Below, in pieces: positions 2,991 through 55,925 of a stretch of 55,925 nucleotides of DNA. The stretch lies in the IMG/VR virus record IMGVR_UViG_3300027967_000009, positions 1 through 55,925 of that record; one strand, given 5' to 3'. The notes under the pieces are model-generated. The model was not told where the DNA came from, ran no database searches, and saw only the letters and a program-made list of their open reading frames with translations. How positions within the stretch are numbered: position 1 is the stretch's first letter; the number at the start of each line of letters is the position of its first letter. This stretch comes from a virus. Taxonomy: Duplodnaviria; Caudoviricetes. The translations under genes and the position numbers were made by a program.

Positions 2991-3018
2991 AAGGGTATAA
3001 GTTGATTAGGGAGGTGGA

Positions 3019-3201
3019 ATGAATAGTAAAGATTTAATCAAACAACTTAAAAAAGCCGGTTGCACAATGGTTCGGGAAGGTAAAGGCTCTCACCAAATAT
3101 GGGAGTCACCAATATCAAAAACACGATTTACCGTCCCCCACCCAAAACGCAATCTTCCGAAAGGAACAATTAAGGGCATATTAAAACAAGCGGGGCTTTA
3201 G
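3019..3201 (+). CDS. hicA: HicA toxin (mRNA interferase)
   Basis: 60 aa, GKGSH and TVPHPK..LPKGT motifs. Confidence 0.92.
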   Translation: MNSKDLIKQLKKAGCTMVREGKGSHQIWESPISKTRFTVPHPKRNLPKGTIKGILKQAGL

Positions 3202-3275
3202 CCCCCTTGCTTTCACAACTAATAATAAAAAAAACTGGTGGAAGAAAAAACTCGTCCAAACAGGAGAAAACAGAA

Positions 3276-3704
3276 ATGTATATATCAGTAGGTTTAGAAA
3301 TTGGCAATGAAGATGACGCGATCGGTATTGTTGTTCCTGCTCTGAATATAGATGGCTACAGTTGCTATTCAGCAGCTGACAGCGAACAAGATATTATCCC
3401 TAACACCAAAGAAGCACTGGCTTTATTGTTAGAAGATATCGCACAAAACAAACCAGAGTTAATTGCCCAAATCGAAGATTATGGTATTCGCCATTATCAA
3501 CAGCAAAGCGACTATGAAGACTTTAATAATTGGAGTATGGTCGAATTTGATTTAGCGCCCTATTTGGGCAAACAAAAACGTATTAACTTGTCGATGTCAG
3601 AAGGACTGATCCAAACTATCGACACCGTTGTTAACGCTCATGATGAATACCGTGACAGAAGTCACTTTTTAGAAGTCGCTGCACGTCACGAATTAACCGC
3701 TTAA
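3276..3704 (+). CDS. hicB: HicB antitoxin
   Basis: IVVP..CYSAAD N-domain, C-terminal RHH (RINLSM..RSHFL); start moved to ATG 3276 after AGGAG. Confidence 0.9.
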   Translation: MYISVGLEIGNEDDAIGIVVPALNIDGYSCYSAADSEQDIIPNTKEALALLLEDIAQNKPELIAQIEDYGIRHYQQQSDYEDFNNWSMVEFDLAPYLGKQKRINLSMSEGLIQTIDTVVNAHDEYRDRSHFLEVAARHELTA

Positions 3705-3728
3705 GCGAAAAAAAACACTATTCATTCC

Positions 3729-3753
3729 AGCCACCTTCGGGTGGCTTTTTTTT
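3729..3753 (+). terminator. Rho-independent terminator
   Basis: AGCCACC-TTCG-GGTGGCT plus T run. Confidence 0.9.
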
Positions 3754-3791
3754 GGCAAAGAATACCCCAAAGTGATGCGTATTATCAGAAT

Positions 3792-3817
3792 GCCCGGTAA
3801 CTTAACCGGGCTTTTTT
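3792..3817 (+). terminator. Second tandem terminator
   Basis: GCCCGGT..ACCGGGC plus T run. Confidence 0.75.
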
Positions 3818-3876: not shown

Positions 3877-4512
3877 ATGTATCGTGACGAAATAAGCCCT
3901 GAAATGAGGCTCTTTAGCCCATCTGGTGAAAGACTATATTGTACTGCTGACGAAAGAGCTAGATTTCTTGATGCAGCTCAAGACGAAGATCCAATAAATA
4001 GAATGTTTTGCCAAGTTCTTCATTATACCGGTTGTCGGCCGCGTGAAGCGATAGAGCTGGAATATGAGCGAATACTCATTGATGATTGCTCTATTGTATT
4101 TCGCTGCTTAAAGAAACGTAAAACTGATAATCAAGGCAGAATTAAACAACCACAATATAGAAGTGTACCTGTACCAAAACTATTAATTGAAAACCTAGAT
4201 TTAGTTTTTGGCGTTCGCAGAGTTCAAGCAAAAAAGAAACAATTGTCTGAGCGCCTTTGGCCTAAATGTCGTACAACTTATTACCGCATGATCAAGAACG
4301 TAATGGCTAGAGCAAACATTCATGGAGAAATGGCAACGGGTAAAGGTTTGAGGCATGGCTTTGGTGTCGCAATGGTTACAGCTAAAAAGCCCTTACCTAT
4401 CCATATACTATCTAGACTAATGGGCCATTCAGACAGTAAAACCACTGAGATTTATTTACAGATAATTGGAGAAGAACAGCGGCAATTAGTGAATGATGCT
4501 TGGGATAGCTAA
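3877..4512 (+). CDS. Small tyrosine recombinase (catalytic domain only)
   Basis: TGCR, KGLRHGF, LMGHS and TEIY catalytic motifs; 211 aa. Confidence 0.9.
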   Translation: MYRDEISPEMRLFSPSGERLYCTADERARFLDAAQDEDPINRMFCQVLHYTGCRPREAIELEYERILIDDCSIVFRCLKKRKTDNQGRIKQPQYRSVPVPKLLIENLDLVFGVRRVQAKKKQLSERLWPKCRTTYYRMIKNVMARANIHGEMATGKGLRHGFGVAMVTAKKPLPIHILSRLMGHSDSKTTEIYLQIIGEEQRQLVNDAWDS

Positions 4513-33947: not shown

Positions 33948-34263
33948 TTTCCTTTATCACTTCAACCAATACTTGCTTAACTTCAATATTGTCTTTCGCT
34001 ATATCATTAACAATAACGCTTCGCTTATAGGCTATCTGCTCGTTTTGTTTGAGTTGATGCATTAGCTCGGCAATAGTTGCTACGCTTTCGTTGTTCGCGG
34101 TTTTTAATATCTGTGCGTTGGCAGTTAACACCTTGTTATCTTTTGATAAAGACGCATTAGCCGCATTTAGCGAAAAGATAATGGCTATTAACGTAAATAT
34201 AACCAAAGCAACAACTGTTTTAATTATTGAGCTGAGCCCGAAATTTTTGAATATGGATAACAT
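33754..34263 (-). CDS. i-spanin (Rz-like)
   Basis: N-terminal TM, coiled coil, W....VPDD; start moved to 34263. Confidence 0.8.
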   Translation of the reverse strand: MLSIFKNFGLSSIIKTVVALVIFTLIAIIFSLNAANASLSKDNKVLTANAQILKTANNESVATIAELMHQLKQNEQIAYKRSVIVNDIAKDNIEVKQVLVEVIKESDDENIIEWSDALVPDDIVSVLKHPRNSNSDENSKINTTKSVNGTNLLASIPRQNKSRSSQLYF

Positions 34264-34777
34264 AATTGATCGTTTCCTTTGAGTGATGTTTAGTGACTTT
34301 CGGCAAACAATTGATGATCGGGTCGTAAAAAACAGCCATATTGCAAAGTTTTTGTGCTTTGGCAATATTTCCTGCTCCTGCGTTATAACTAGCAAGCATC
34401 AATTTGATTCTTTCAATGACTGGCCGAGGCGAATACCAGAAGCGATAAAGCTTACTGTTATACCAAGCGGCGGCCTCTATATTGGTTCGCGGATCAAACA
34501 CATGTGACCCTTGCTTGATTAGGTTGGGAACATCTTCCCAAGTTGTCGGCATAAACTGACAAACACCTTCTGCCCCTACTGGAGAGACTGCTGTCGGTTT
34601 AAATCGGCTTTCTTGATAACACTGAGCTTTTAGCCAGTACCAATCAATACCAGGCATATGCCAAGACATTGCTGACTTAAAATAAATGTCGTATTTAAGC
34701 GATTGTAAAGGTGAAGATAAACAATGCTGTGTAACAAATATGGCGAACATTAAGATAGCGCACTTGATAATGTTCAT
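34220..34777 (-). CDS. Endolysin, SLT-family lytic transglycosylase
   Basis: QESRF, GA.G..QFMP.TW, YNAG, ET.NYV; hydrophobic N-terminus; start uncertain. Confidence 0.9.
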   Translation of the reverse strand: MNIIKCAILMFAIFVTQHCLSSPLQSLKYDIYFKSAMSWHMPGIDWYWLKAQCYQESRFKPTAVSPVGAEGVCQFMPTTWEDVPNLIKQGSHVFDPRTNIEAAAWYNSKLYRFWYSPRPVIERIKLMLASYNAGAGNIAKAQKLCNMAVFYDPIINCLPKVTKHHSKETINYVIHIQKFRAQLNN

Positions 34778-34919
34778 GTAATTCCTTCCATGTTTTTTGA
34801 AAATCAATACCCGAACGCTTATCTGCAATACGTAACGAAGTAAACAAAAACACTGTTGCCAATAAAGCCGCTAAGCCTTTTTTAACAACAGCAAATAAAA
34901 TTGGTATTAAAAACTCCAT
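34695..34919 (-). CDS. Holin (probable)
   Basis: 74 aa, two hydrophobic segments, first gene of the lysis cassette. Confidence 0.65.
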   Translation of the reverse strand: MEFLIPILFAVVKKGLAALLATVFLFTSLRIADKRSGIDFQKTWKELHEHYQVRYLNVRHICYTALFIFTFTIA

Positions 34920-34957
34920 GTCACATTTCTCGTTACTCTTTGTTGAATTTTAGGCAT

Positions 34958-34986
34958 AAAAAAACCCGCTCTATTTAGCAGGTTTG
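34958..34986 (-). terminator. tR'-like terminator upstream of lysis genes
   Basis: AAACCTGCT..AGCGGGTTT plus T run on minus strand. Confidence 0.7.
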
Positions 34987-35015
34987 TGTATACGGTCTTT
35001 TTGCATCTTGGGAAA

Positions 35016-35024
35016 ACTATACCA
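35016..35024 (-). promoter_or_regulatory. Candidate late promoter (extended -10)
   Basis: TGGTATAGT about 30 bp upstream of the terminator, pR'-tR' layout. Confidence 0.4.
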
Positions 35025-35212
35025 TCAAAAAGGGGCAAAACCAGCCCCAAAAATGGGAAGTTTCTGACATGCGTTCCAGAATTACTAATATCGTGGTTTT
35101 TCTCGCTTTCAGTAGGAGAATCATGCCAACTTGTTAAACGTTATTGTTTTTAACAAGTTATTGGCTAAAGGTTTACTGGTGAAAAGAGGAAAAACGATCC
35201 TTAGTAACAGTG

Positions 35213-35482
35213 TTATATTGCCTCGGGCAATTCAGGTAATGGCATCCAGTGTGTCATATCTTCTCCACCTATATTGCACCAGTACCCATCGTCAAATTCA
35301 CATTCAAAAAAGTAACTCCCATTAAACCCTAAAATCTTATTCCCTTGCATAGCTTCTGGTGGAGCCTGATTTACATCTTTAAGCACAAAATGTTTTTCGT
35401 ACCAATCATTAACCTGTTTAGCATTAAATACTGGCGTTTCGTCTGCAAATGTTCTCGCTGTTCTAGCTAGTAATCTTTCCAT
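35213..35482 (-). CDS. Cassette 1: DUF551-like protein
   Basis: C-terminal THWMPLPELP; GAGG RBS before ATG 35482. Confidence 0.75.
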   Translation of the reverse strand: MERLLARTARTFADETPVFNAKQVNDWYEKHFVLKDVNQAPPEAMQGNKILGFNGSYFFECEFDDGYWCNIGGEDMTHWMPLPELPEAI

Positions 35483-35511
35483 TTTTAGTTCCTCTTTCAT
35501 TTAATCGGCAA

Positions 35512-35597
35512 ATATAACAACTGCTATCAAACGACAAATAACAGCTGGTTCGTTCCTCACAGACGCTTTATATTTGCATCTGTGCTTTAGGTTATGT
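35512..35597 (+). repeat. attC site 1
   Basis: ATATAAC-AACTGCTATCAAACGAC...GTTATGT. Confidence 0.75.
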
Positions 35598-35828
35598 TCT
35601 CACAATAAACGGTGTAGTGTGCTGCAATACATAACGTTTAATTACCAAGCGCACATCACCACTACCTCGAAAGTTTTTCTTTATATAGTGCCTTGCTTCA
35701 TCTTCAGTTTCTGCATCTATCTCAAAAGCAGGCGCACCAACTGGCCCAACAAAATATTTAATAATGTCTCTGTCATGGTTCGCTTCAACACAACCCTTTT
35801 GACCGCAAATATTACATTCACCACTCAT
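35592..35828 (-). CDS. Cassette 2: hypothetical protein with N-terminal CxxC..C..H motif
   Basis: GAGG RBS, MSGECNICG; stop codon in GTTA core. Confidence 0.7.
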   Translation of the reverse strand: MSGECNICGQKGCVEANHDRDIIKYFVGPVGAPAFEIDAETEDEARHYIKKNFRGSGDVRLVIKRYVLQHTTPFIVRT

Positions 35829-35850
35829 CTTTAAATCCTCAAAATAAATC

Positions 35851-35904
35851 ACATAACAAAGCGCATCAATCGGACTCTACGAGCCGTTGTGCTTGGGGTT
35901 AGAA
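35851..35904 (+). repeat. attC site 2 (short)
   Basis: ACATAAC-AAAGCGCATCAATCGGAC...GCCGTTGTGCTTGGG-GTTAGAA. Confidence 0.85.
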
Positions 35905-35907
35905 TGG

Positions 35908-36075
35908 CTAATCGATAATATATATTTTATCCAGCAGCTTTTTTAAATTATCTATATCTTCTTTGTATCGCAGAACTAAAAATGCACCATCTTCTTTATC
36001 GCACAACACAATGCCATTATTAGTGGCTAAAGAGGTGTATTCTCTTTTTGAATGTTTCTCTACTATGCTTACCAT
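35908..36075 (-). CDS. Cassette 3: hypothetical 55-aa protein (MVSIVEKHSKREY...)
   Basis: Read manually; AGGA RBS; fills the cassette. Confidence 0.6.
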   Translation of the reverse strand: MVSIVEKHSKREYTSLATNNGIVLCDKEDGAFLVLRYKEDIDNLKKLLDKIYIID

Positions 36076-36103
36076 TTCAATCCTACCTTTTGTGTTAATG
36101 CCA

Positions 36104-36185
36104 ATCTAACAAATAATTCAAACGGACTGTCAACAGTTCGCTCGTTCCTCACGCTGTTTCCAGCGCGCTTAATTTGAGGTTAGCA
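36104..36185 (+). repeat. attC site 3 (VCR-like)
   Basis: ATCTAAC-AAATAATTCAAACGGACTGTCAAC...CAGCGCGCTTAATTTGAG-GTTAGCA. Confidence 0.88.
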
Positions 36186-36395
36186 GGAATTAATCGACCA
36201 CCATACTGCGCCGTCATTTTTTACTAATCCACGCCTTTTTAATTTTTGCAAATTTTGACTTACATCTAATCTAGTTAGTTGATTTTGCAGATGACTAAGT
36301 TCATCTTTATTTCTTAGGGTTAAAAATATACTCCATGCACTTCGTCTGTTTTTTGGTTTTAACTCTGCCAACACATGGCTTTCAATATTTTGCAT
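36180..36395 (-). CDS. Cassette 4: small winged-helix-like protein
   Basis: VSQNLQKLKRRGLV; GGAGG RBS. Confidence 0.65.
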   Translation of the reverse strand: MQNIESHVLAELKPKNRRSAWSIFLTLRNKDELSHLQNQLTRLDVSQNLQKLKRRGLVKNDGAVWWSINSC

Positions 36396-36438
36396 AACTA
36401 CCTCCTAAATAATTACAATTCAACGCGTAGCACAACAA

Positions 36439-36699
36439 TCAAACATCCCACTCACATTGTGCAAACCACCATGCTTTATTAAGATCTTTCGTTCTCGCGT
36501 ATTCAGCTAAGAAAGCATCAAAGCACTCTACCGCTAAACCACAGTTGCATATCAGCTCTAGGTATTCATTTAAGTCGGTAGCCTTATGCCCAGTAAAAGG
36601 CATTATTAATTCGCCGCTAACAACGGCTTCAACGGGATTGCTAACAGTTGGCTTCTCGTCAAAGGCTTCCTCTAATTCTTTATTTGTATTTCCAAACAT
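36439..36699 (-). CDS. Cassette 4: hypothetical protein starting inside attC4
   Basis: AAGGAG RBS and ATG lie in the attC loop. Confidence 0.65.
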   Translation of the reverse strand: MFGNTNKELEEAFDEKPTVSNPVEAVVSGELIMPFTGHKATDLNEYLELICNCGLAVECFDAFLAEYARTKDLNKAWWFAQCEWDV

Positions 36700-36743
36700 T
36701 TATTCTCTCCTTTGGGTCGCAACCCATTAATCTAAGGTTAGGC
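36615..36743 (+). repeat. attC site 4 (long)
   Basis: CGCTAAC-AACGGCTTCAACGGGATTGC...GCAACCCATTAATCTAAG-GTTAGGC. Confidence 0.85.
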
Positions 36744-36745
36744 GG

Positions 36746-36949
36746 TTAATTCAATTTCAGCGTTTTGTGTAAACTGTCAAAATCAGCCGCTCTAACATCT
36801 TTTACTATTTTATTTATTTGGCTATCTGGCAAACCAAGCTTGTTTAATGTTTGCTCAAAAGCTATTTGTAATCTTGTTCGGTCATTAGCAACCTTGCAAA
36901 GTTCTTCACCAAACTTTTGCAGCATTCTAGCTTTATCACCAGTAGCCAT
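36746..36949 (-). CDS. Cassette 5: hypothetical helical protein downstream of acb2
   Basis: Starts 3 nt after the acb2 stop. Confidence 0.65.
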   Translation of the reverse strand: MATGDKARMLQKFGEELCKVANDRTRLQIAFEQTLNKLGLPDSQINKIVKDVRAADFDSLHKTLKLN

Positions 36950-36952
36950 AAC

Positions 36953-37177
36953 TTAAAAACTCTCTGGCTGTGCTACAGCGCGCACAGCAGCCATAAAGCC
37001 TTTTTGTAAATCCGTTTTAGCTACAGCAACCCATCGTTGATCTAACTGTTTATTACTTTGTAGCTCCTCGATTAAAACTCCAACCTCTTCGGCTTTCGCT
37101 TTAACTGCGTTCATAGCATCAATCTCAGCTTGACTCAAATCACGGTAGCCTTTAATTTTCTTGTGTTGATTATCCAT
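36953..37177 (-). CDS. acb2: Cassette 5: Acb2-family anti-CBASS cyclic nucleotide sponge
   Basis: [23 protein letters not shown]...RW.A..KTD.Q.G.MA..RA.AQP.SF matches the recalled Acb2 signature; GAGG RBS before ATG 37177. Confidence 0.88.
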
Positions 37178-37216
37178 TGTATTTCCTCTTTCTTTGATTA
37201 AGTTGCCAAGCAAACC

Positions 37217-37292
37217 GCCTAACAACGCGTTTAAATTTGATTGCTACAGTTGCTACGCGCCTTGCGCAACAACTTAACGCAAATGGTTAGTT
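37217..37292 (+). repeat. attC site 5
   Basis: GCCTAAC-AACGCGTTTAAATTTGATTGC...GCAACAACTTAACGCAAATG-GTTAGTT. Confidence 0.85.
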
Positions 37293-37412
37293 TGCTTTAT
37301 CGTAGTTCGCATACATCTAGCTTAATATAAATGTAATACTGATAGATATTAACGAACCGATCGTATAGCCGACCCAAAACCCCAAGCTCTCTAATTTAAT
37401 GTATTTAATGTA

Positions 37413-37625
37413 TCACCGCCTTTGTGTATCAATTGCTAACTGTTTAAGTTTCGGTAGTTCTTTTTCAAATTCCAATATCAAATCTTCTTCATTAAGCTTT
37501 CTAGAAAAAATAAAAGCACACTCTGAGCAGTGTATTTGACTAACACTTATTTCAAAGCTACTTCTTATCCCTAAGCCAACATAACTTTGATTGCACATAG
37601 GGCATTTTTGTCCGCTGAGATTCAT
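37413..37625 (-). CDS. Cassette 6: zinc-ribbon protein
   Basis: CPMC...CSEC. Confidence 0.65.
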   Translation of the reverse strand: MNLSGQKCPMCNQSYVGLGIRSSFEISVSQIHCSECAFIFSRKLNEEDLILEFEKELPKLKQLAIDTQRR

Positions 37626-37813
37626 GGTGTAACCTCTGGCTCGACTGATAAAGCTTCAACAACAGCATCTACAGCCCACTTGTGAGGCTCAAACGCTTGT
37701 GCTTCATCGTCTGTTTCTGGCAAGTAATCATGCCTACCTGTTATTGCTTTAGCATGCTTTAATGCGTGTTTTTGTAATAACTCTCTTGCTTTGCTTTCTT
37801 GTTGTGTTTTCAT
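37622..37813 (-). CDS. Cassette 6: hypothetical protein
   Basis: ATGA overlap with next gene; YLP....A..F.PH.W.V.A. Confidence 0.65.
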   Translation of the reverse strand: MKTQQESKARELLQKHALKHAKAITGRHDYLPETDDEAQAFEPHKWAVDAVVEALSVEPEVTP

Positions 37814-37847
37814 ATTTTTCTCGCTTATCGTTTAGCGCTGTCAGCAA

Positions 37848-37918
37848 AACTAACAACACGTATCAAAGGAATTTAACAGTAAGTTACCCTGTTAAATCCT
37901 CTGTACTATGGGTTATGC
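37848..37918 (+). repeat. attC site 6
   Basis: AACTAAC-AACACGTATCAAAGGAATTTAACAG...CTGTTAAATCCTCTGTACTATGG-GTTATGC. Confidence 0.85.
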
Positions 37919-38113
37919 GGTTATCTTGTCTTGCTCGAATTTTCGCCCTTGATCAAACGCCTCTTGTATTTTTCTAGCTATAACCTTGTTTATAGCTTCT
38001 ATTTTTCGGTGCTCTGCATCTGCATCTTTCCCAAAATCAGCGTCTATCTTTCTGTGTATTTCTTCATACTCAAAATCATAAAGCTCACAAAAAACCTTTT
38101 CTTTTACTTCCAT
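37913..38113 (-). CDS. Cassette 7: hypothetical charged protein
   Basis: Stop in GTTA core; start ATG 38113 or TTG 38128. Confidence 0.65.
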   Translation of the reverse strand: MEVKEKVFCELYDFEYEEIHRKIDADFGKDADAEHRKIEAINKVIARKIQEAFDQGRKFEQDKITA

Positions 38114-38136
38114 CTTCTCTATCTCCAATAGTTACC

Positions 38137-38209
38137 GCCTAACAACCGCAATCAAATGAAGTTAACAGTCGCTACGCTCGGTTAATTCATCTGTTCCATA
38201 CGGTTATAA
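38137..38209 (+). repeat. attC site 7
   Basis: GCCTAAC-AACCGCAATCAAATGAAGTTAAC...GTTAATTCATCTGTTCCATACG-GTTATAA. Confidence 0.8.
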
Positions 38210-38401
38210 GGCTCTCTTAAACTGTATCTCAACCTCATAAGGAGCCAAAACAGTATCTGTTTCACCACAAAACGGACAGTAGATTTTTTGCTGTGGCGGG
38301 TTACTCATTAGGTGTCCGCCTTTAGGGTCTGCGATCATCATTCCGCCACAGTCACAATACTTGGCACCTTTTGCTACTGCTTGTATATTTTGTACTTCCA
38401 C
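38204..38401 (-). CDS. Cassette 8: zinc-ribbon protein
   Basis: CDCGG.M...L.SNPPQ....CPFCG; AAGGA RBS, GTG start. Confidence 0.7.
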   Translation of the reverse strand: MEVQNIQAVAKGAKYCDCGGMMIADPKGGHLMSNPPQQKIYCPFCGETDTVLAPYEVEIQFKRAL

Positions 38402-38416
38402 TTTAGTTCCTTAGCC

Positions 38417-38457
38417 TTATAACAAGGCAATTAATCGTGACTGCGCAAAGGTTAGTC
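38417..38457 (+). repeat. attC site 8 (truncated)
   Basis: TTATAAC-AAGGCAATTAATCGTGACTGC left arm present; right arm largely missing before GTTAGTC. Confidence 0.6.
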
Positions 38458-38463
38458 AACATG

Positions 38464-38988
38464 CTAGTTTGTCACCAAATACCCTTGTGCCTGAAAATTA
38501 ACTCTCTCTTGATTTATCTCTGGTAGCGTTTTTTTCAAGCCGTTAGGGTGGTTAGGAAGTATCGTATGTGTTTTCTGTTGCTGCTGAAAACCACCTTGCT
38601 GTTGAGGTGCTTGTTGACCTTGGAAGCCGCCTTGTTGACCAGAAGGCTTACCATCTAACATTTGCATTACACCGTTAAAGCCTTGTAGAACAATCTCGGT
38701 AGTATATTGGTCTTGCCCTTGTTGGTTGGTCCATTTGCGCGTTTGTAGTTGACCTTCTACATAAACTTTTGAGCCTTTTTTCAAATAGTCTCTGGCAATT
38801 TCTGCTAACTTTCCAAATAACACAACTCTATGCCATTCGGTTTTTTCTTTTTGCTCGCTTGTTTGTTTGTCTTTCCATTTATCTGAGGTGGCAATGGTAA
38901 TGTTTGCTACAGCACTATTGTTTGGCAAAAATTTAAACTCTACGTCTTTACCTAAGTTACCAACTAAAATCACTTTATTTACTGACAT
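38464..38988 (-). CDS. ssb: Single-stranded DNA-binding protein
   Basis: [39 protein letters not shown]. Confidence 0.95.
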
Positions 38989-38997
38989 GGGTTTTCC

Positions 38998-39333
38998 TTA
39001 AATGATGGCTAATTCTTGCTTTAATGCTCTAGCTGCAAGAATGTCTTCAATACGGCGTCTAACGGTGCCTTCTGCTTTTTTTTCAGGGCTAACGCTGCTT
39101 GTGTCACCGGGTCTATTACTGATAACAAAGGTTATTTTTTTAGACTTCTTCGATATTTTATGATTACAGCCACAGCTCAACGTGTGCCCAGAAGAAAAAT
39201 TATCCATTCTGACTTCGGTTTCTTTTCCGCAATCACATTGGCAATGTAAGTACTTTTGATTGTTTCTTCCTTTTCGCTTAGCTATAGATACTGCTGTTAA
39301 TTTGCCGTATTTAGTTCCGATAATGCTAGTCAC
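38998..39333 (-). CDS. Protein with Cys-rich module of the type found N-terminal to phage HNH/AP2 proteins
   Basis: G.KYGKLT..CQCDCG...SCGC; no nuclease domain seen. Confidence 0.65.
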   Translation of the reverse strand: MTSIIGTKYGKLTAVSIAKRKGRNNQKYLHCQCDCGKETEVRMDNFSSGHTLSCGCNHKISKKSKKITFVISNRPGDTSSVSPEKKAEGTVRRRIEDILAARALKQELAII

Positions 39334-39344
39334 AACCCCTCTCC

Positions 39345-39725
39345 TTATTTTAATGACACTGACTGCAAGCGTTTGTATAGCGCGGCAGCAACTTTATATT
39401 CCACTTCGTCACCTGCATCGCGACACATGTCTGCATATTCAAGCACTTTCATTTCAGAATTTTTCAAGTGTTGAGTCATAGCAAGTTTTGCTTTTTGTAA
39501 GTTTGCTGTAGTCATATTGACTTTCTCCCTTTGTAGCTCTTTTTTTAAATCTGGAAAATAACGAATCAATGCTTTAAACGCGTCATTAATTTGCTTTACG
39601 GTATGCATGGCTTTGTTTTTGCCTATACTTACCATGCTTAGTTCTTCTGCAAATAGAGCTTTGGCTTGCGCTGGCTTGGTCATGCTTTTATTGATATTTG
39701 GAATGTCAACCGCAACCGTGCTCAT
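39345..39725 (-). CDS. Hypothetical protein
   Basis: ATGA-coupled ORF in the early operon. Confidence 0.7.
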   Translation of the reverse strand: MSTVAVDIPNINKSMTKPAQAKALFAEELSMVSIGKNKAMHTVKQINDAFKALIRYFPDLKKELQREKVNMTTANLQKAKLAMTQHLKNSEMKVLEYADMCRDAGDEVEYKVAAALYKRLQSVSLK

Positions 39726-42964: not shown

Positions 42965-43615
42965 ATGCTAATGAACAAAACACTTGGGCAATGCCTTGAA
43001 TTCTACAGAACGGAACTCGGTTGGAGTCAAACGCAAGCATCGGGTGAAACTGATTTTGTTATTTCTCAACAGCAAATCGGCAAGCTAGAAAAAGATGACA
43101 TTAAAAACCCTGGTATATTTACCATAAACACCCTGCTTGATGCTTACAATAAAGAGCCTAACGATTTAAAAAAAGACATGGCTGAAGGTGTAGAGGTTGC
43201 GGTAAAAGAACAGGCGCCTTTATTTTCTGTTAGCTCAACTATCCCTTTACTTCATAGCAAAGACATTAAGTGCTACTTAACGGGTGAGCCGGTTACAGCA
43301 ATTGACCACATCCCTTATACTGAAAACCCAAGTAAAAAAATATACGCTGTTAAGTTGGCCAATGAATTAATGAGAGCTAACACTGGTAATAGTTACCCTG
43401 AAAAAAGCATCGTTATTTTTGATGCCACAAAGGTATTTAAAGATCATAGGGATATGATGATAGAAGTCGACGGGGATATTTTATTTAGACGCGTATTTAA
43501 AGACGGATCTACCTATTTTGTTAAAACAACCAACCCAGAATTTCCAAATTCAAGCTCCTGTAAAGATATTTCTTATTTAGGCAGAGCTGTTGAATGTAGA
43601 ATTATAACCAAATGA
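42965..43615 (+). CDS. CI-like prophage repressor (HTH plus S24-like domain)
   Basis: N-terminal XRE HTH; C-terminal SYPE.SIVIFD...NP.FP...GR.V; start 42965 or 42971. Confidence 0.85.
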   Translation: MLMNKTLGQCLEFYRTELGWSQTQASGETDFVISQQQIGKLEKDDIKNPGIFTINTLLDAYNKEPNDLKKDMAEGVEVAVKEQAPLFSVSSTIPLLHSKDIKCYLTGEPVTAIDHIPYTENPSKKIYAVKLANELMRANTGNSYPEKSIVIFDATKVFKDHRDMMIEVDGDILFRRVFKDGSTYFVKTTNPEFPNSSSCKDISYLGRAVECRIITK

Positions 43616-44131: not shown

Positions 44132-44211
44132 TAGGGGGGGTGGGCAGGGTGCCCACCCCTAACTTTTTTGCAAAATTTAAAGGGGGTGGGCAGGGTGCCC
44201 ACCCCCCCCTA
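44132..44211. repeat. Two GC-rich palindromes GGGGTGGGCA-GGG-TGCCCACCCC upstream of repA
   Basis: Copies at 44137-44159 and 44182-44206 in an AT-rich tract. Confidence 0.85.
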
Positions 44212-44240
44212 TTTTTATTTGAATTATGTGGAGGTTGGTC

Positions 44241-47200
44241 ATGAAAAAACTAACCTTACAACAATTTTATCAAGACAAATTTAGAGGTGACGCCACACTT
44301 TTAATGGCTCACCCTGAAGCATTTAATCAATTGTCTGCTGAGGCAGATAATGCCTATGTGGTTTGGTCTGATATTTGTAACGACATTGACCCAAGCAGAA
44401 TGGGCGGTAAAAACAGTGATAAGTTCACTGGTAAAGTGCCTGTTTCAAACACTAAATACAAAGGCCGTGCGGCTGTTTATAGTAACCTACGTAGCTCGGA
44501 CGATAATACCTTTGAATACCCCACGGTTAACTTTGTATTAAAAGGTAATAACGTTGGTGGTTGGTCTGGTCTGTCTTTGTTAGTAAAACTATACAAAGAA
44601 CACAAGGGTACTATTACTGACAATGAACGACTTAAATGGCAGCGCGAGAGCGAGGCTAAAAAGAAACAATTACTTGCAAAACAAAGCGCAGCAAAGCAAG
44701 AAGGCGAACGCAAAGAAAAACGAAAACACGAATTAAATCAACAGTATAGTGCACTTTTTGATGTTTCACCAAAAGAAGATGGCAGCCAGAGTTACTTAGT
44801 TAAGAAAAAAATAGCTGAGGTGGTTCAATACATAGATATTCGTCGCTGTGTTGAGTTTGATGATGTATATAGCTTAGGTAGAAAAGGCCAAGAGTTTTTA
44901 GCGATTCGCTTTATCGATATTGACGGTAACTATGTTGGTCTTCAACGAATATATGAAGATGGCGCCAAGCTCAACACACCAGGCTTTGATTTTAGCAACG
45001 GTGCACACTGTGTTATTGGTGACATTGATGCTGCAGACGAAAACTATATTTACGCCGGTGAGGGTTTTGCTACTTGTGCAAGCGCTATGCTTGCTATGCA
45101 CAACCATAAAATTGCTAATAATCGCAAAAAAACAGCAGTTATCATAGGTATCAACTCAAACAATTTAAAGAAATGTTTGGCTCTTTTTAAAGACCAAGAA
45201 GCTGACCTAAAAATAAATCATCTGGCTGATAATGACCAATGGAAAAACCAACAAGGTAAAGGTAATGCTGGTTTATTAATTTCATGTTTTGCTGTTGATG
45301 TACTGGGTTATAAATCGGTGGTACCGCTTTTTGAAGATTACACCTTTGATGGTGTTGAATTTGATGAACGACCAACCGATTTTAATGATTTACATTGCCT
45401 TGCTGGGTTAAGTGAGGTTAGACGACAACTAAAAGCCCAGCGCAATAAATTTAAATCTTCAGGTAAAAGCCCTTTTGATAAAACTTGCCGTGAGCTGCGT
45501 TATATTGCTGCTGGTAACGATAATAAAAAGCTCTTTGAGTTAGTTAATAGAGCAATTCAACAAGGTGTCCAACTTTACCCTATACATTACGGTGTGGCTG
45601 ATATTCTTGCTTGTATTGAACACAACATTAAACACCTTTATCACCTGTTTGATAAAGTGAGTTACTTTAATGAACTAAGTGGTCGCTTAAATTGGATTAT
45701 AGGTAAACGTGTCAATAATGCTCAGGCATTCCGTTCGTTTAGTGAAGAGGTTATTTCTAAGCCTCACGTTAACTATAAAAAGTTTAATGACACCCGAATA
45801 ACGCCCGAGATTTATGCGTACATTAAAAACTTAAATGGGGCCGTAGTGGTAAGGGCGCCTATGGGTAGTGGTAAAACCCAACACTTACTTAGCCCACTGA
45901 TGGCCAAATCAGATAGAGCTGCGTATTTTGCACACCGAGTATCATTAATCGCCTCAAGTGTTAGTAATTTAAATAAACGCAGAACAACTCACGCAATTAA
46001 TAAATTTTCGCCCGTTGAACTTGAGCATGTAGATCATATCTTTGCCCAATCTTTTACTCCGGTTGGCTTGAGTAAGTCATTGCCGACTGATTTTTTAGTT
46101 CAAAACTACCAAGACTTTAAAGGTAACGGTATGGGTGTGTTTGCTCGCTCTGTTGAGCAAATGGCCATGTGTATCAACTCTATTACTAATCCATCGTTTT
46201 CACCATTATTGGAGGATTTGGATTTTTCAGCATTTGATGAAGCCGCTCAAACATTGCGCCACGTAGCAGATGGTAGTGCATGTGATAAACCTGAAATGGT
46301 TTATAACGCTATGCTTAAAACCATTAAAAACAGCAGCAAGCAGGTTATTTTGTGTGACGCTGATGCCAATGATGAAGTGATTGAAATGTGCGAACAAGCT
46401 CGCCCTGGTGAAATAATTCATGTGGTTGAGCTAGACACCGATTTCAGCGACATAAAAGTAAAATATACAGACAATGGCGATCAGGTTTTCAACCAAGTGT
46501 TTACTGCTGTCGAAAATAATGAAAAAGTTATCGTTGCTAATGACTCGGCCACCAACGGCAAATCCATGTATGAGCGACTTAAAGAGCGCTTTCCTGCTAA
46601 ACGCTTCTTGTTTATTTACCAAGACTCAAAAGGCAATGCTGATGTTGATTACTTCAACCAAAACCCTGATTTAGCGGTAAACGAGCAGCAATATGATGCT
46701 GTTATTTACTCTCCTTGTATAAGTTCTGGTGTTTCGCTTGAGTCGGGCTATTTCACTAAACATTTTGCTATTTTATGCGGCACCGTAGCACCATCTGACG
46801 CCATTCAAATGATTAGACGCGATCGCTGTGCTAAAGAATTCATTATCGGGTTTAACAAACAAAACACCACATACCCCGAAACTAAAGAAGAAATTATTAT
46901 CGGTATGATCAAAGCGGATGATATCAATCTTACGCTCGATTTATCTGAAGGCATGATGCGACTTGGCCGTATGTACACCAAATTTGATGATATGCGTATC
47001 AATGTTATTGCTAAGCAAAATAGAGCGCGGAATGACTTTGCTAATAACATGCTATTGATACTGCAAGGGGATAAATATCAGCTTGAGCGCATTGCTGAAA
47101 ATGAAGTGGAAAAAGAAATAGGTAATGCACAACGTAACCTTGGTAGAGAAATAGCCAAAGCGCGTGATTTAGAGCTTCAATTAAATCAGGAAACACCCGA

Positions 47201-48110
47201 ACCAGAAACAGCTGAGCGACTTCGTAAAGAAGATTGCGTGAGTGAAGAAGAACGGGCGCAACTAAAACGTTATGATATTGAAACACAGTTATGTTCACAA
47301 GTTACCGCTGACACTATCGCGTTTAATGATGACCGCGGCATAAGTAAAGTAAAAAACTTTGAACTACTGAAAGGTAATATCAGCCAAGCCAATGCTTACG
47401 ATGTTTCTGAAATTGCCACCAATATTTCCTTTAGTGCTCGAGAACGAAAAACCGCAAAAATGAATCTACTGCACCAGGTGTTTTCAATACTAGGTGTTGA
47501 TAAGGCGTCTGGTGAAGGGGAGTTTACTGGCGAGCAAATGCGCCTAGTTCGTGATTCGCTGTTAGGTAGCGAAGACGATATTATGCTGTATAACACTACT
47601 CGTATAGGTGGCTACATTCACCCTAAAACGCGCAAGAAAAAATGTGAGACAACCTTTGTTAAAAATATTTTATCTAAATGCGGCCTCGAGCTTGGCTCAC
47701 GTTTAGAAGGTAAAGCGAGAAAACGCATATCATTTATCAAGCCTGGCGTATGGGATGTTATGCAATCCTACTTTAAAGCCCGTCAAGAACAAAGCATTTC
47801 GTCACTTGAGCCGTTGCAATATGATACTGATGCGGAGGTACTTAAGCGATCGGGTTTAACGATTGATATAAACCTTATTAATAAAGCCGATCACCAAAGT
47901 ATTACTTACGCAAAAATGGCTGGAAACGCTTTAACGGCGCTGGTTAACGAGGCTATCGAAGGATTGAATATTAGCTTTGAAAATGCGGTAAGCATGCTTG
48001 ATGGTGAAACTATCACTGATATTCTAAATGATGACATGCCAATTGGCATGTTGCGCTCATATTTCGCGACTCAAGAGAAATATGAACGGCAATTAATGGC
48101 TGTTTGTTAG
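44241..48110 (+). CDS. repA: N15-type RepA primase-helicase
   Basis: TOPRIM (EGFAT, ADND, TDFNDLH), APMGSGKT, DE motif; GGAGG RBS before ATG 44241. Confidence 0.92.
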   Translation: MKKLTLQQFYQDKFRGDATLLMAHPEAFNQLSAEADNAYVVWSDICNDIDPSRMGGKNSDKFTGKVPVSNTKYKGRAAVYSNLRSSDDNTFEYPTVNFVLKGNNVGGWSGLSLLVKLYKEHKGTITDNERLKWQRESEAKKKQLLAKQSAAKQEGERKEKRKHELNQQYSALFDVSPKEDGSQSYLVKKKIAEVVQYIDIRRCVEFDDVYSLGRKGQEFLAIRFIDIDGNYVGLQRIYEDGAKLNTPGFDFSNGAHCVIGDIDAADENYIYAGEGFATCASAMLAMHNHKIANNRKKTAVIIGINSNNLKKCLALFKDQEADLKINHLADNDQWKNQQGKGNAGLLISCFAVDVLGYKSVVPLFEDYTFDGVEFDERPTDFNDLHCLAGLSEVRRQLKAQRNKFKSSGKSPFDKTCRELRYIAAGNDNKKLFELVNRAIQQGVQLYPIHYGVADILACIEHNIKHLYHLFDKVSYFNELSGRLNWIIGKRVNNAQAFRSFSEEVISKPHVNYKKFNDTRITPEIYAYIKNLNGAVVVRAPMGSGKTQHLLSPLMAKSDRAAYFAHRVSLIASSVSNLNKRRTTHAINKFSPVELEHVDHIFAQSFTPVGLSKSLPTDFLVQNYQDFKGNGMGVFARSVEQMAMCINSITNPSFSPLLEDLDFSAFDEAAQTLRHVADGSACDKPEMVYNAMLKTIKNSSKQVILCDADANDEVIEMCEQARPGEIIHVVELDTDFSDIKVKYTDNGDQVFNQVFTAVENNEKVIVANDSATNGKSMYERLKERFPAKRFLFIYQDSKGNADVDYFNQNPDLAVNEQQYDAVIYSPCISSGVSLESGYFTKHFAILCGTVAPSDAIQMIRRDRCAKEFIIGFNKQNTTYPETKEEIIIGMIKADDINLTLDLSEGMMRLGRMYTKFDDMRINVIAKQNRARNDFANNMLLILQGDKYQLERIAENEVEKEIGNAQRNLGREIAKARDLELQLNQETPEPETAERLRKEDCVSEEERAQLKRYDIETQLCSQVTADTIAFNDDRGISKVKNFELLKGNISQANAYDVSEIATNISFSARERKTAKMNLLHQVFSILGVDKASGEGEFTGEQMRLVRDSLLGSEDDIMLYNTTRIGGYIHPKTRKKKCETTFVKNILSKCGLELGSRLEGKARKRISFIKPGVWDVMQSYFKARQEQSISSLEPLQYDTDAEVLKRSGLTIDINLINKADHQSITYAKMAGNALTALVNEAIEGLNISFENAVSMLDGETITDILNDDMPIGMLRSYFATQEKYERQLMAVC

Positions 48111-55799: not shown

Positions 55800-55925
55800 A
55801 ACATACATAGTATCAACTACCACCACACTATCACCCATGTATGATATACATTAAACCTATACGTATAGGTTTAATGTATATCATACATGGGTGATAGTGT
55901 GGTGGTAGTTGATACTATGTATGTT
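55800..55925. repeat. Right hairpin telomere (telR), read through as a perfect palindrome
   Basis: Centre 55862|55863; 55819-55862 identical to 3-46. Confidence 0.95.

Follow-up and report, generated by a model that had tools for sequence, protein, structure and literature searches.

Do phages keep counter-defence genes on integron cassettes, in the format now regarded as the bacterial bank of anti-phage defence? The question is raised by a tailed-phage genome (Duplodnaviria; Caudoviricetes), IMG/VR virus record IMGVR_UViG_3300027967_000009, which we analyzed over its whole length of 55,925 bases (the window) and which is rated 100% complete. On the minus strand, a series of small genes bounded by ssb (38464-38988) and by two terminator-like hairpins (35048-34962) includes acb2, the gene for a homologue of the Acb2 sponge protein that acts against CBASS (cyclic oligonucleotide-based antiphage signaling systems). 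A first-pass annotation had read the interval 36737-37223 as a mobile cassette with acb2 and a tightly coupled partner gene between perfectly complementary 11-bp ends, the mirror case of defence genes carried on bacterial cassettes. We consider it probable that the interval represents an integron-type acb2 cassette within a CALIN (cluster of attC sites lacking integrase), exchanged between unrelated phages at its core sites, with an integrase that was most likely supplied by the host.

The acb2 product and its neighbor

By homology, the protein of 74 amino acids (aa) encoded at 36953-37177 on the minus strand is Acb2. The first-pass annotation had called it a compact Acb2 homologue and had proposed hidden Markov model or structure comparison as a check; sequence matches to the family profile and to proteins of solved structure bear it out. 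The protein matches the Acb2/Tad1 hairpin domain PF24729 over profile positions 1 to 58 of 58 (E 8e-22; 77.6 bits against a cut-off of 27) and, among the solved structures in the PDB, the Acb2 ("p26") of phage PaMx33 (8H2J, E 1e-19; 8IXZ, E 5e-19) and Vs.4 of phage T4 (7UQ2, E 9e-4). If translation started at an upstream TTG, the product would grow to 90 aa. Residues 1 to 41 align without a gap to the PaMx33 chain and residues 47 to 74 align to chain residues 66 to 93, so that some 19 to 24 residues of the PaMx33 middle segment (chain 42-65) are absent. Y11, K26, R48 (R67 in PaMx33), and T55 (T74) are all present in this alignment, and among 38 aligned relatives of the 74-aa protein Y11 and K26 are invariant while R48 and T55 are at least 90% conserved. 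According to the text of Cao et al. (preprint, PMC10312549), Y11 and K26 hold cyclic dinucleotides and R67 and T74 hold cA3; it also gives the acb2 gene of phage JBD67 as just 228 bp long, yet with both ligands bound by its product. The window protein would likewise be a working sponge. Most likely as in PaMx33 and JBD67, a hexamer would soak up the cyclic di- and trinucleotides of CBASS, and the effector would never be switched on.

The second gene encodes a protein of 67 aa (p67), and only 3 nt separate the stop codon of acb2 from its ATG. It has no Pfam or PHROG family, its own family comprises just 12 clusters (69 to 97% identity) in a collection of 5.8 billion proteins, and the ESM Atlas gave no usable match. 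An AlphaFold model shows four helices at modest confidence (pLDDT, 73) and has no PDB fold match at E<=0.001. Any role for p67 within the cassette is conjecture at this point.

Hairpins between the gene units

Between 35.5 and 38.5 kb, every gap between gene units contains an imperfect hairpin, the plus strand of which reads NNNTAAC-AA(C/A)...(G)GTTA(G/T)NN. In an alignment of 24 elements of this kind, taken from the window and from four other phage contigs, both ends match up, and every correctly delimited row has TAAC and GTTA. So do 27 of 27 elements compared by their boxes; the purine/pyrimidine pattern of attC boxes is sometimes broken (e.g., GTTATGT, AACTAAC).

Two covariance models, trained on bacterial and on phage elements, respectively, were used to compare these hairpins with attC sites. 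The reference was the integron of Alteromonas sp. KUL49 (intI, 459.8 bits on TIGR02249), in which 14 attCs follow plus-strand open reading frames (ORFs). Model R1 was built from those 14 attCs only, and model R2 from 12 phage elements only, aligned on the R1 structure. Over five phage stretches R1 gave 30 matches at E<=10, 17 of which agree to the base and in strand with elements delimited by eye and include 15 of the 24 aligned elements; the remaining 13 are scattered and weak. Across the whole window, R1 picks out 35851-35904 at E 0.0013. R2 gives five matches in the window at E<=0.01, all on the plus strand and all within 35512-37918. In the reciprocal direction it recovers the Alteromonas attCs, 14 of 14 and on the gene strand (twelve at 35 to 40 bits, two at about 23 bits), as well as three attCs in a Paraglaciecola integron region. 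When five whole phage records were searched with R2, the matches were single-stranded in each, forming one cluster in four records and, in the fifth, two that lie about 4 kb from each other. Homology in both sequence and structure hence identifies the window hairpins as putative attC sites.

Other searches were less informative. A naive scan for TAAC...GTTA hairpins returned 59 matches on one strand of the whole window, and an Rfam scan of 34000-39500 (E<=5) returned chance leader matches alone and no attC family. RNAalifold found no structure on the 24-element MAFFT alignment, which is not structure-aware and includes one mis-delimited row. The exact degenerate pattern of attCs B and C (Table 1) was found in IMG/VR on one contig (L085).

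The 11-bp repeat and the limits of the cassette

The sequence GTTAGGCGGTT occurs exactly twice in the window, at 36737-36747 on the plus strand and as its reverse complement at 37213-37223, and the 74- and 67-aa ORFs lie between the two copies as first described. Taken alone, this bare repeat is not beyond chance. When up to two mismatches are allowed, 19 matches are counted where 11.5 +/- 4.0 are expected, and as many as 19 turn up in 4 of 100 shuffles; about seven perfect 11-nt inverted pairs within 500 bp are estimated for a window of this size, and four further perfect pairs of 11 to 12 nt are found inside the same 5.5 kb. Such numbers are what one would expect if the repeat were a chance match and the two ORFs ordinary early genes without cassette structure. 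The attC homology, the box complementarity, and the transfer between phages described below already contradict this explanation, to which we assign hardly any probability.

The repeat gains its meaning from position and family: the cassette begins at its 5' end with a G|TTRRRY core, which pairs with the RYYYAAC box of the attC that belongs to this cassette. Crossover in integrons falls within the R' box (G|TTRRRY), and the first bases of a cassette consequently pair with its own R'' box rather than with the R'' of the hairpin that surrounds them. The five phage arrays behave in this manner: between the boxes on either side of the ORFs, 58 of 66 variable positions are complementary, versus 30 of 81 for the two boxes within one hairpin. 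No other instance of this rule is as strong as the 11-bp repeat. Its left arm is the R' core GTTAGGC (36737-36743) of the attC of the preceding cassette 4, and its right arm is the R'' box GCCTAAC of attC A plus four bases. One-mismatch copies of the repeat at 37912 (+) and 38133 (-) lie on either side of the neighboring one-gene unit, and the last element before ssb (G) has an R'' box, TTATAAC, that is fully complementary to the preceding R'. In another phage locus with seven attCs in 2.7 kb (L171), neighboring boxes are perfectly complementary in five of six cases. Furthermore, the TAA stop of the last gene is the core-site TTA read on the other strand in five of eight window cassettes (35213, 35592, 36180, 37913, and 38204), so that the reading frame ends exactly at the recombination point.

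Delimited in this way, the acb2 cassette extends from T36738 to G37286, a total of 549 bp with its attC (37217-37292) included; the R' box of attC A is GTTAGTT, and the crossover follows G37286. The interval first proposed was thus right about the presence of a cassette and about its ends being marked, but it stopped at the RYYYAAC box, short of the true end point, and the attC hairpins themselves and the inverted orientation of the genes had been missed.

Orientation of the genes relative to attC

The genes of the Alteromonas integron lie on the attC top strand and those of the phage cassettes on the bottom strand, the reverse of the arrangement in bacterial integrons. All 28 R2 matches in Acb2 loci are antisense to acb2, and all 16 R2 matches in the seven ssb loci with attCs (out of 53 ssb-related loci) are antisense to ssb. 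ORFs between attCs were checked in the window and in nine further loci (L005, L006, L045, L047, L072, L085, L160, L171, and L192); none of these phage cassettes has a gene that reads towards its own attC, the direction that permits expression from Pc, all being inverted. The attC that travels with acb2 is located upstream of it. The strand-specific matches of R1 are likewise on the plus strand only at these sites. The same layout is seen in Pseudoalteromonas phage H101, with two R2 matches on the plus strand and 12 of 12 annotated coding sequences on the minus strand. The gene-sense strand gives the more stable fold in 24 of 32 phage attCs and in 8 of 8 Alteromonas attCs; in the text of PMC5027507, bottom attC strands are described as the more stable ones.

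Recurrence of the cassette in unrelated phages

We examined the best 80 of 354 IMG/VR loci that encode Acb2. The 67-aa ORF is also encoded in four of these 80 (L005, L006, L007, and L045), and none of the other window cassette ORFs turns up among the 80, save a weak 32% match of the 95-aa ORF in L020. DNA homology of the four loci with the window is limited to 36734-37237, at a nucleotide identity of 95% (L005), 91% (L006 and L007), and 82% (L045). In a four-way alignment, the sequences are unrelated up to AAGG|TTAGGC, then homologous across the two genes and the two arms of attC A, and they diverge again right after GGTTA, where the next cassette starts with TTAGTT, TTAGGC, TTATAT, or TTATGT. 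The claim of a mobile cassette is therefore upheld by the same unit in other phages, with homology that ends at the G|TT cores. On comparison of the whole records, the window and these phages share no further cassette gene, and the matches beyond the cassette are confined to the terminase (38% aa identity), two head genes (26 to 40%), the single-stranded DNA-binding protein SSB (57%), and one unrelated ORF (49%). With the same cassette present in unrelated phages, it would appear that phages trade counter-defence genes as integron cassettes.

Independent samples contain parts of the array as well. The neighboring cassette (37286-37858) occurs at 98 to 99.8% identity in contigs of two other studies: a 7.4-kb contig (run X8) and a 607-nt contig (run X6) carry it with 11 and 1 differences and with homology that begins at 37286 and 37285, respectively. 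In another X6 contig, the match to the acb2 cassette begins at 36734. Uncovered parts in runs X4 and X5 carry no meaning; these two runs may share a campaign with the source of the record. A joint 36755>38117 in one short contig was discarded, its shorter side of 21 letters being too short to trust, as are loose ends of 13 letters.

Divergent Acb2 genes (60 to 62% aa identity) are found in other attC-bounded cassettes of three genes each, in L047/L048 and L072. In L072 (2689-3467), Acb2 is accompanied by a 78-aa ORF and an XRE-type helix-turn-helix protein (HTH_3, E 2e-10), and in L047 (2680-3947) by a 77-aa ORF and a 209-aa ORF without family. Since these cassettes have other companions, p67 is not a fixed partner of Acb2; of the tight coupling first proposed, the 3-nt spacing stands and the partnership reduces to adjacency.

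Within the L045 copy (3001-3432, corresponding to window 36746-37177), p67 is 90% identical and the attC nearly so, with Acb2 at just 66% and its differences in the middle of the protein. The pattern points to replacement of an allele, or else to rapid evolution, within the cassette. A relative of the 86-aa ORF of window cassette 4 adjoins the acb2 cassette in the same locus.

attC sites also recur beside ssb, in 7 of the 53 ssb-related loci (L160, L167, L171, L173, L174, L191, and L192), mostly just downstream of the gene. The ssb relatives in IMG/VR included no phage with the same backbone, the best reaching 83 to 84% aa identity over the OB domain, and cassette turnover within one backbone could for that reason not be shown.

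With regard to other cargo, the only window array ORFs with a Pfam family are acb2 and the ORF with a DUF551 domain, and none of 19 ORFs in the L005, L006, and L045 arrays has one. The remaining cassette ORFs may also serve in anti-defence, which is a reasonable lead rather than a finding.

The recurrence and the orientation together bear on the possibility of a single capture, in which an ancestor of the phage took up part of a bacterial chromosomal integron that is now dead; its hairpins would serve only as RNA or transcription elements between small genes, and acb2 would be there by accident. Fragments of chromosomal integrons have been reported in Vibrio anguillarum phages, and attC sites are said to contain weak terminators, both according to the text of PMC9892861. 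Yet the same architecture is found with different cargo on many backbones that are unrelated, in the window, L005, L006/L007, L045, L047/L048, L072, L085, the seven ssb loci, and H101, and identical cassettes stand in different arrays. Moreover, with the phage genes inverted relative to bacterial cassettes, an array captured from a bacterium would be antisense. Phage-typical genes, for Acb2 and DUF551, are among the cargo, and the only one of 401 sampled bacterial genomes that matched the array DNA did so through an acb2 homologue of 68% identity. A single capture of this kind is, in our judgment, very improbable.

Movement of the cassettes

Given that at least two attCs lie close together with no intI nearby, the array qualifies as a CALIN; intI, attI, and Pc, the elements that a complete integron would have beside the array, were not found there in the window. 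We propose that unrelated phages would have exchanged the acb2 cassette as a unit, with recombination at its conserved core, G|TT / AA|C. The agent would most likely be an integron integrase of the host cell, acting in trans during infection on the folded bottom (gene-sense) strand. We favor a host integrase because just four to five bases are invariant at the breakpoints and because R' is split as it is in integrons. Such exchange may continue today.

The same breakpoints invite another explanation, in which the hairpins are derived from attC sites, no integrase is now involved, and the conserved ends and arms provide short homologies by which phage or host recombination swaps modules between co-infecting phages. 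The conserved cassette ends (TAACAA... / ...GGTTA) could then be likened to the boundary sequences of lambdoid phages. Consistent with this, intI is missing from the six phage records searched, the breakpoints can be placed only within the shared GGTTA / TAAC consensus, attC loops differ among copies of one cassette, and recombination or replication genes such as ssb adjoin the array. However, an invariant homology of just 4 to 5 bp is far below the usual need of homologous recombination. The split of R' leaves G behind in the attC and sends TTRRRY on with the next cassette; it is visible here in the contrast of box complementarity between and within hairpins and is the specific footprint of cleavage by integron integrases according to the text of PMC5027507. 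In addition, phage attCs of the same layout, those of H101, were recombined by IntI1 (PMC9892861, section 3.4). We regard swapping through short homologies as unlikely and retain exchange by an integron integrase as the probable mechanism.

Several observations nevertheless weigh against an integron-type cassette moved by a host integrase. At the level of the hairpins, three of the eight window attCs (36615-36743, C, and G) are not significant alone (E 0.098 to 0.33). R2 was aligned on the R1 structure, so that its reciprocal match to Alteromonas is not fully independent, and the E-values of both models are rough. In an attC, extra-helical bases are expected opposite the AAC triplet of the bottom strand, which is the one recombined. 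The minimum-energy folds have 56 unpaired bases in the 5' arm and 81 in the 3' arm, an asymmetry that is weakly visible overall and clear in single attCs (B, L5c, and L85c). The loop of attC A in the window differs from that in the other three contexts, and the homology of the neighboring cassette in other sequencing runs ends about 11 nt into attC B.

Most Acb2 genes, furthermore, are not cassette-borne: attC matches occur in 7 of the 80 viral Acb2 loci, leaving 73 without an attC. No attC was found beside Acb2 in 55 loci of bacterial genomes, and array DNA matched just 1 of 401 sampled genomes of the order. That sole match is the above acb2 homologue and not a cassette, so exchange with host integrons was not seen among the genomes searched.

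As to the enzyme, no integron integrase is encoded in the window (best TIGR02249 match, 26.3 bits against a cut-off of 265), nor was intI found in five related phage records, just one of which is about complete (99%). An integrase acting in trans is an assumption on our part. The conserved GGTTA is so short that the breakpoints by themselves cannot separate site-specific from microhomology-guided recombination.

A phage-encoded candidate was considered and rejected. The 211-aa tyrosine recombinase at 3877-4512 (+) scores 26 bits on the integron-integrase model and lies 31 kb away from the array, and a 99%-complete relative (G001) is without such a gene. This recombinase has a Phage_integrase catalytic domain (54 bits) and is short for a lysogeny integrase.

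Conceivably, though on balance we would rather doubt it, marine phages keep a mirror-image cassette pool of their own and borrow the SOS-induced integron integrase of the host during infection to shuffle counter-defence genes such as acb2 between phages that are unrelated. If so, inversion would make the recombinogenic strand the non-template one, exposed by transcription. The two pools would be separate in expression, in that a phage cassette would lie the wrong way round for Pc once in a host integron, and a bacterial cassette, once in a phage array, would be antisense. On this view, the arrays would hold unknown anti-defence proteins in concentrated form, as a library made up of their orphan ORFs of about 70 aa.

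The array and its setting

The array (35212-38457) comprises about eight cassettes and lies at the distal end of a phage early operon; its features are listed in Table 1. The attC of cassette 4 seemingly overlaps the first 85 nt of the 86-aa ORF, with its R'' box within the coding sequence, and the same is seen in the L045 homologue (3714-3817).

Table 1. Features of the attC array and its borders, in order of position
Feature	Position	Strand	Basis
Two terminator-like hairpins, end of minus-strand operon just past the array	35048-35032, 34985-34962	-	Terminator prediction
First core site GTTATAT (array boundary), complementary to ATATAAC R'' of first attC	35212..35218	+	Box comparison
Cassette 1 ORF, 95 aa, DUF551 C-terminal domain, TAA stop in core site	35213..35500	-	PF04448, E 8e-6, 27.1 bits (cut-off 22)
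attC D (putative)	35512..35597	+	R2 23.5 bits, E 0.0047; absent from training, which has two relatives from other loci
Cassette 2 ORF, 86 aa, without family	35592..35852	-	ORF list
attC F (putative)	35851..35904	+	R1 19.7 bits, E 0.0013, exact ends; R2 43.7 bits (training member)
Cassette 3 ORF, 55 aa, without family	35908..36075	-	ORF list
attC E (putative)	36104..36185	+	R1 10.5 bits (weak); R2 35.7 bits (training member)
Cassette 4, ORFs of 71 aa (36180-36395) and 86 aa (36439-36699), without family	36180..36699	-	ORF list
Cassette 4 attC (putative), weak, long	36615..36743	+	R2 18.2 bits, E 0.098; boxes 2/3 complementary to cassette start
p67, 67-aa ORF, second gene of acb2 cassette	36746..36949	-	ORF list
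acb2, 74 aa, cyclic-oligonucleotide sponge homologue	36953..37177	-	Pfam PF24729 and PDB matches
attC A (putative), own attC of acb2 cassette	37217..37292	+	R2 29.9 bits, E 1.3e-4
Cassette 6, ORFs of 70 aa (zinc-ribbon-like CxxC pairs) and 63 aa	37413..37813	-	ORF list
attC B (putative)	37848..37918	+	R2 33.9 bits, E 1.3e-5; neither B nor a relative in training; hairpin z-score -2.5
Cassette 7 ORF, 71 aa, one-mismatch copies of 11-bp repeat on both sides	37913..38128	-	ORF list
attC C (putative, weak)	38137..38209	+	R2 16.0 bits, E 0.33; 5' half aligns with B; boxes fit cassette rule
Cassette 8 ORF, 65 aa	38204..38401	-	ORF list
Short attC-like element G (weak), last before ssb	38417..38457	+	R2 from 38417, 18.0 bits, E 0.11
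ssb, directly upstream of array in transcription direction	38464..38988	-	ORF list and ssb DNA matches

The large terminase of the phage is of the lambda type, the sequencing runs that contain window sequence are marine, and the closest ssb DNA is that of Vibrio phages. The window attCs resemble those of Alteromonas and Paraglaciecola. A collection of cultured phages held no close relative of the array or the cassette and matched just ssb (67 to 72% nucleotide identity) and acb2 (about 68%). Among bacterial species representatives, Acb2 relatives reached just 41 to 73% aa identity (78% for one partial match of 27 residues), and no host was indicated.

Long palindromes elsewhere in the window were also noted. 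A nearly perfect palindromic hairpin of 82 nt is identical at both ends of the record (6-87 and 55822-55903), which suggests terminal redundancy or a circularly closed assembly; the attC model matches it on both strands, as a generic long hairpin. An 80-nt palindrome at 43156-43235 is likewise matched on both strands (19 and 16 bits). Two GC-rich hairpins with 11-bp stems (region 44136-44206) lie just 5' of a 1,294-aa Toprim/helicase-like ORF (44226-48110), and the region with these structures (43156-43235 and 44136-44206) may be an origin or regulatory region.

Comparison with known systems

Phage CALINs have been published, with functional attCs (Qi, Rajabal, Ghaly, Tetu, and Gillings 2023, Front Microbiol; PMC9892861), and in the text of that paper orphan methyltransferases among the cargo are suggested to counter host defence or restriction. 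The proposed mirror case thus stands as regards a counter-defence cassette in a phage, but its being wholly new does not. The published arrays are similar to the one described here in that they lack an integrase, occur in phages that include marine virulent ones, and carry small ORFs of unknown function, and the phage-derived model R2 matches the published H101 region. They differ in that the text mentions no Acb2 or signal-sponge cassette and calls the H101 arrangement "most typical of bacterial arrays"; the text is also without a placement of genes on the bottom strand, although figures and supplements may bear on orientation and cargo. Here, by contrast, one cassette is traced across unrelated phages, and arrays recur beside ssb. 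The literature that we searched describes no Acb2 or other signal sponge on an attC cassette, no uniform inversion of phage cassettes, and no recurrent place beside ssb, and these three features appear to be new.

If the reading proposed here is right, the recombination grammar of integrons is also found on the phage side, where it carries a validated class of counter-defence gene, with one cassette traceable through unrelated phages and independent samples. This bears on how phages acquire and swap small anti-defence genes so fast, and it offers a search rule, by which the stretch downstream of ssb in marine phages is searched for inverted attCs and the ORFs between them form a compact and well-delimited set of anti-defence candidates. 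The uniform inversion of the genes relative to attC bears on the coupling of integrase strand choice and gene expression.

The Acb2 proteins of the Pseudomonas phages PaMx33 and JBD67 were reportedly described by Huiting et al. in 2023. The window Acb2 shares with that of PaMx33 an almost identical N terminus of 25 residues, a conserved C-terminal helix, and the equivalents of Y11, K26, and R67/T74, and with that of JBD67 a similar compact length, whereas the PaMx33 middle segment is without counterpart. Furthermore, the window phage is marine, and its acb2 is embedded in an attC cassette together with p67, an ORF not known from the Pseudomonas phages.

Sedentary chromosomal integrons, as in Alteromonas sp. 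KUL49, have in common with the phage array the RYYYAAC...GTTRRRY hairpins, the complementarity of the cassette 5' end to its own R'', and units of 250 to 630 bp with one or two small promoterless genes. In contrast, the phage array is virus-borne, is without intI, attI, and Pc, and has its genes on the opposite strand relative to attC. The Alteromonas attCs are near-identical repeats of 111 nt, whereas those of the phages range from 41 to 129 nt and are heterogeneous. Likewise, the defence cassettes of the Vibrio cholerae SCI (Darracq et al. 2024 preprint, 10.1101/2024.07.02.601686) carry cargo of the conflict between phage and bacterium, but there the cargo is defence and here it is counter-defence. 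Anti-defence genes have been located in integrons, among other places, in the survey of Tesson et al. (2024 preprint, PMC11370490), which concerns bacterial genomes and in the text of which no case of Acb2 in a cassette is given. Finally, the array resembles the anti-defence islands and accessory hotspots of phages, where small counter-defence genes cluster in variable early regions, and it differs from them by a defined recombination grammar, with a putative attC site between every unit.

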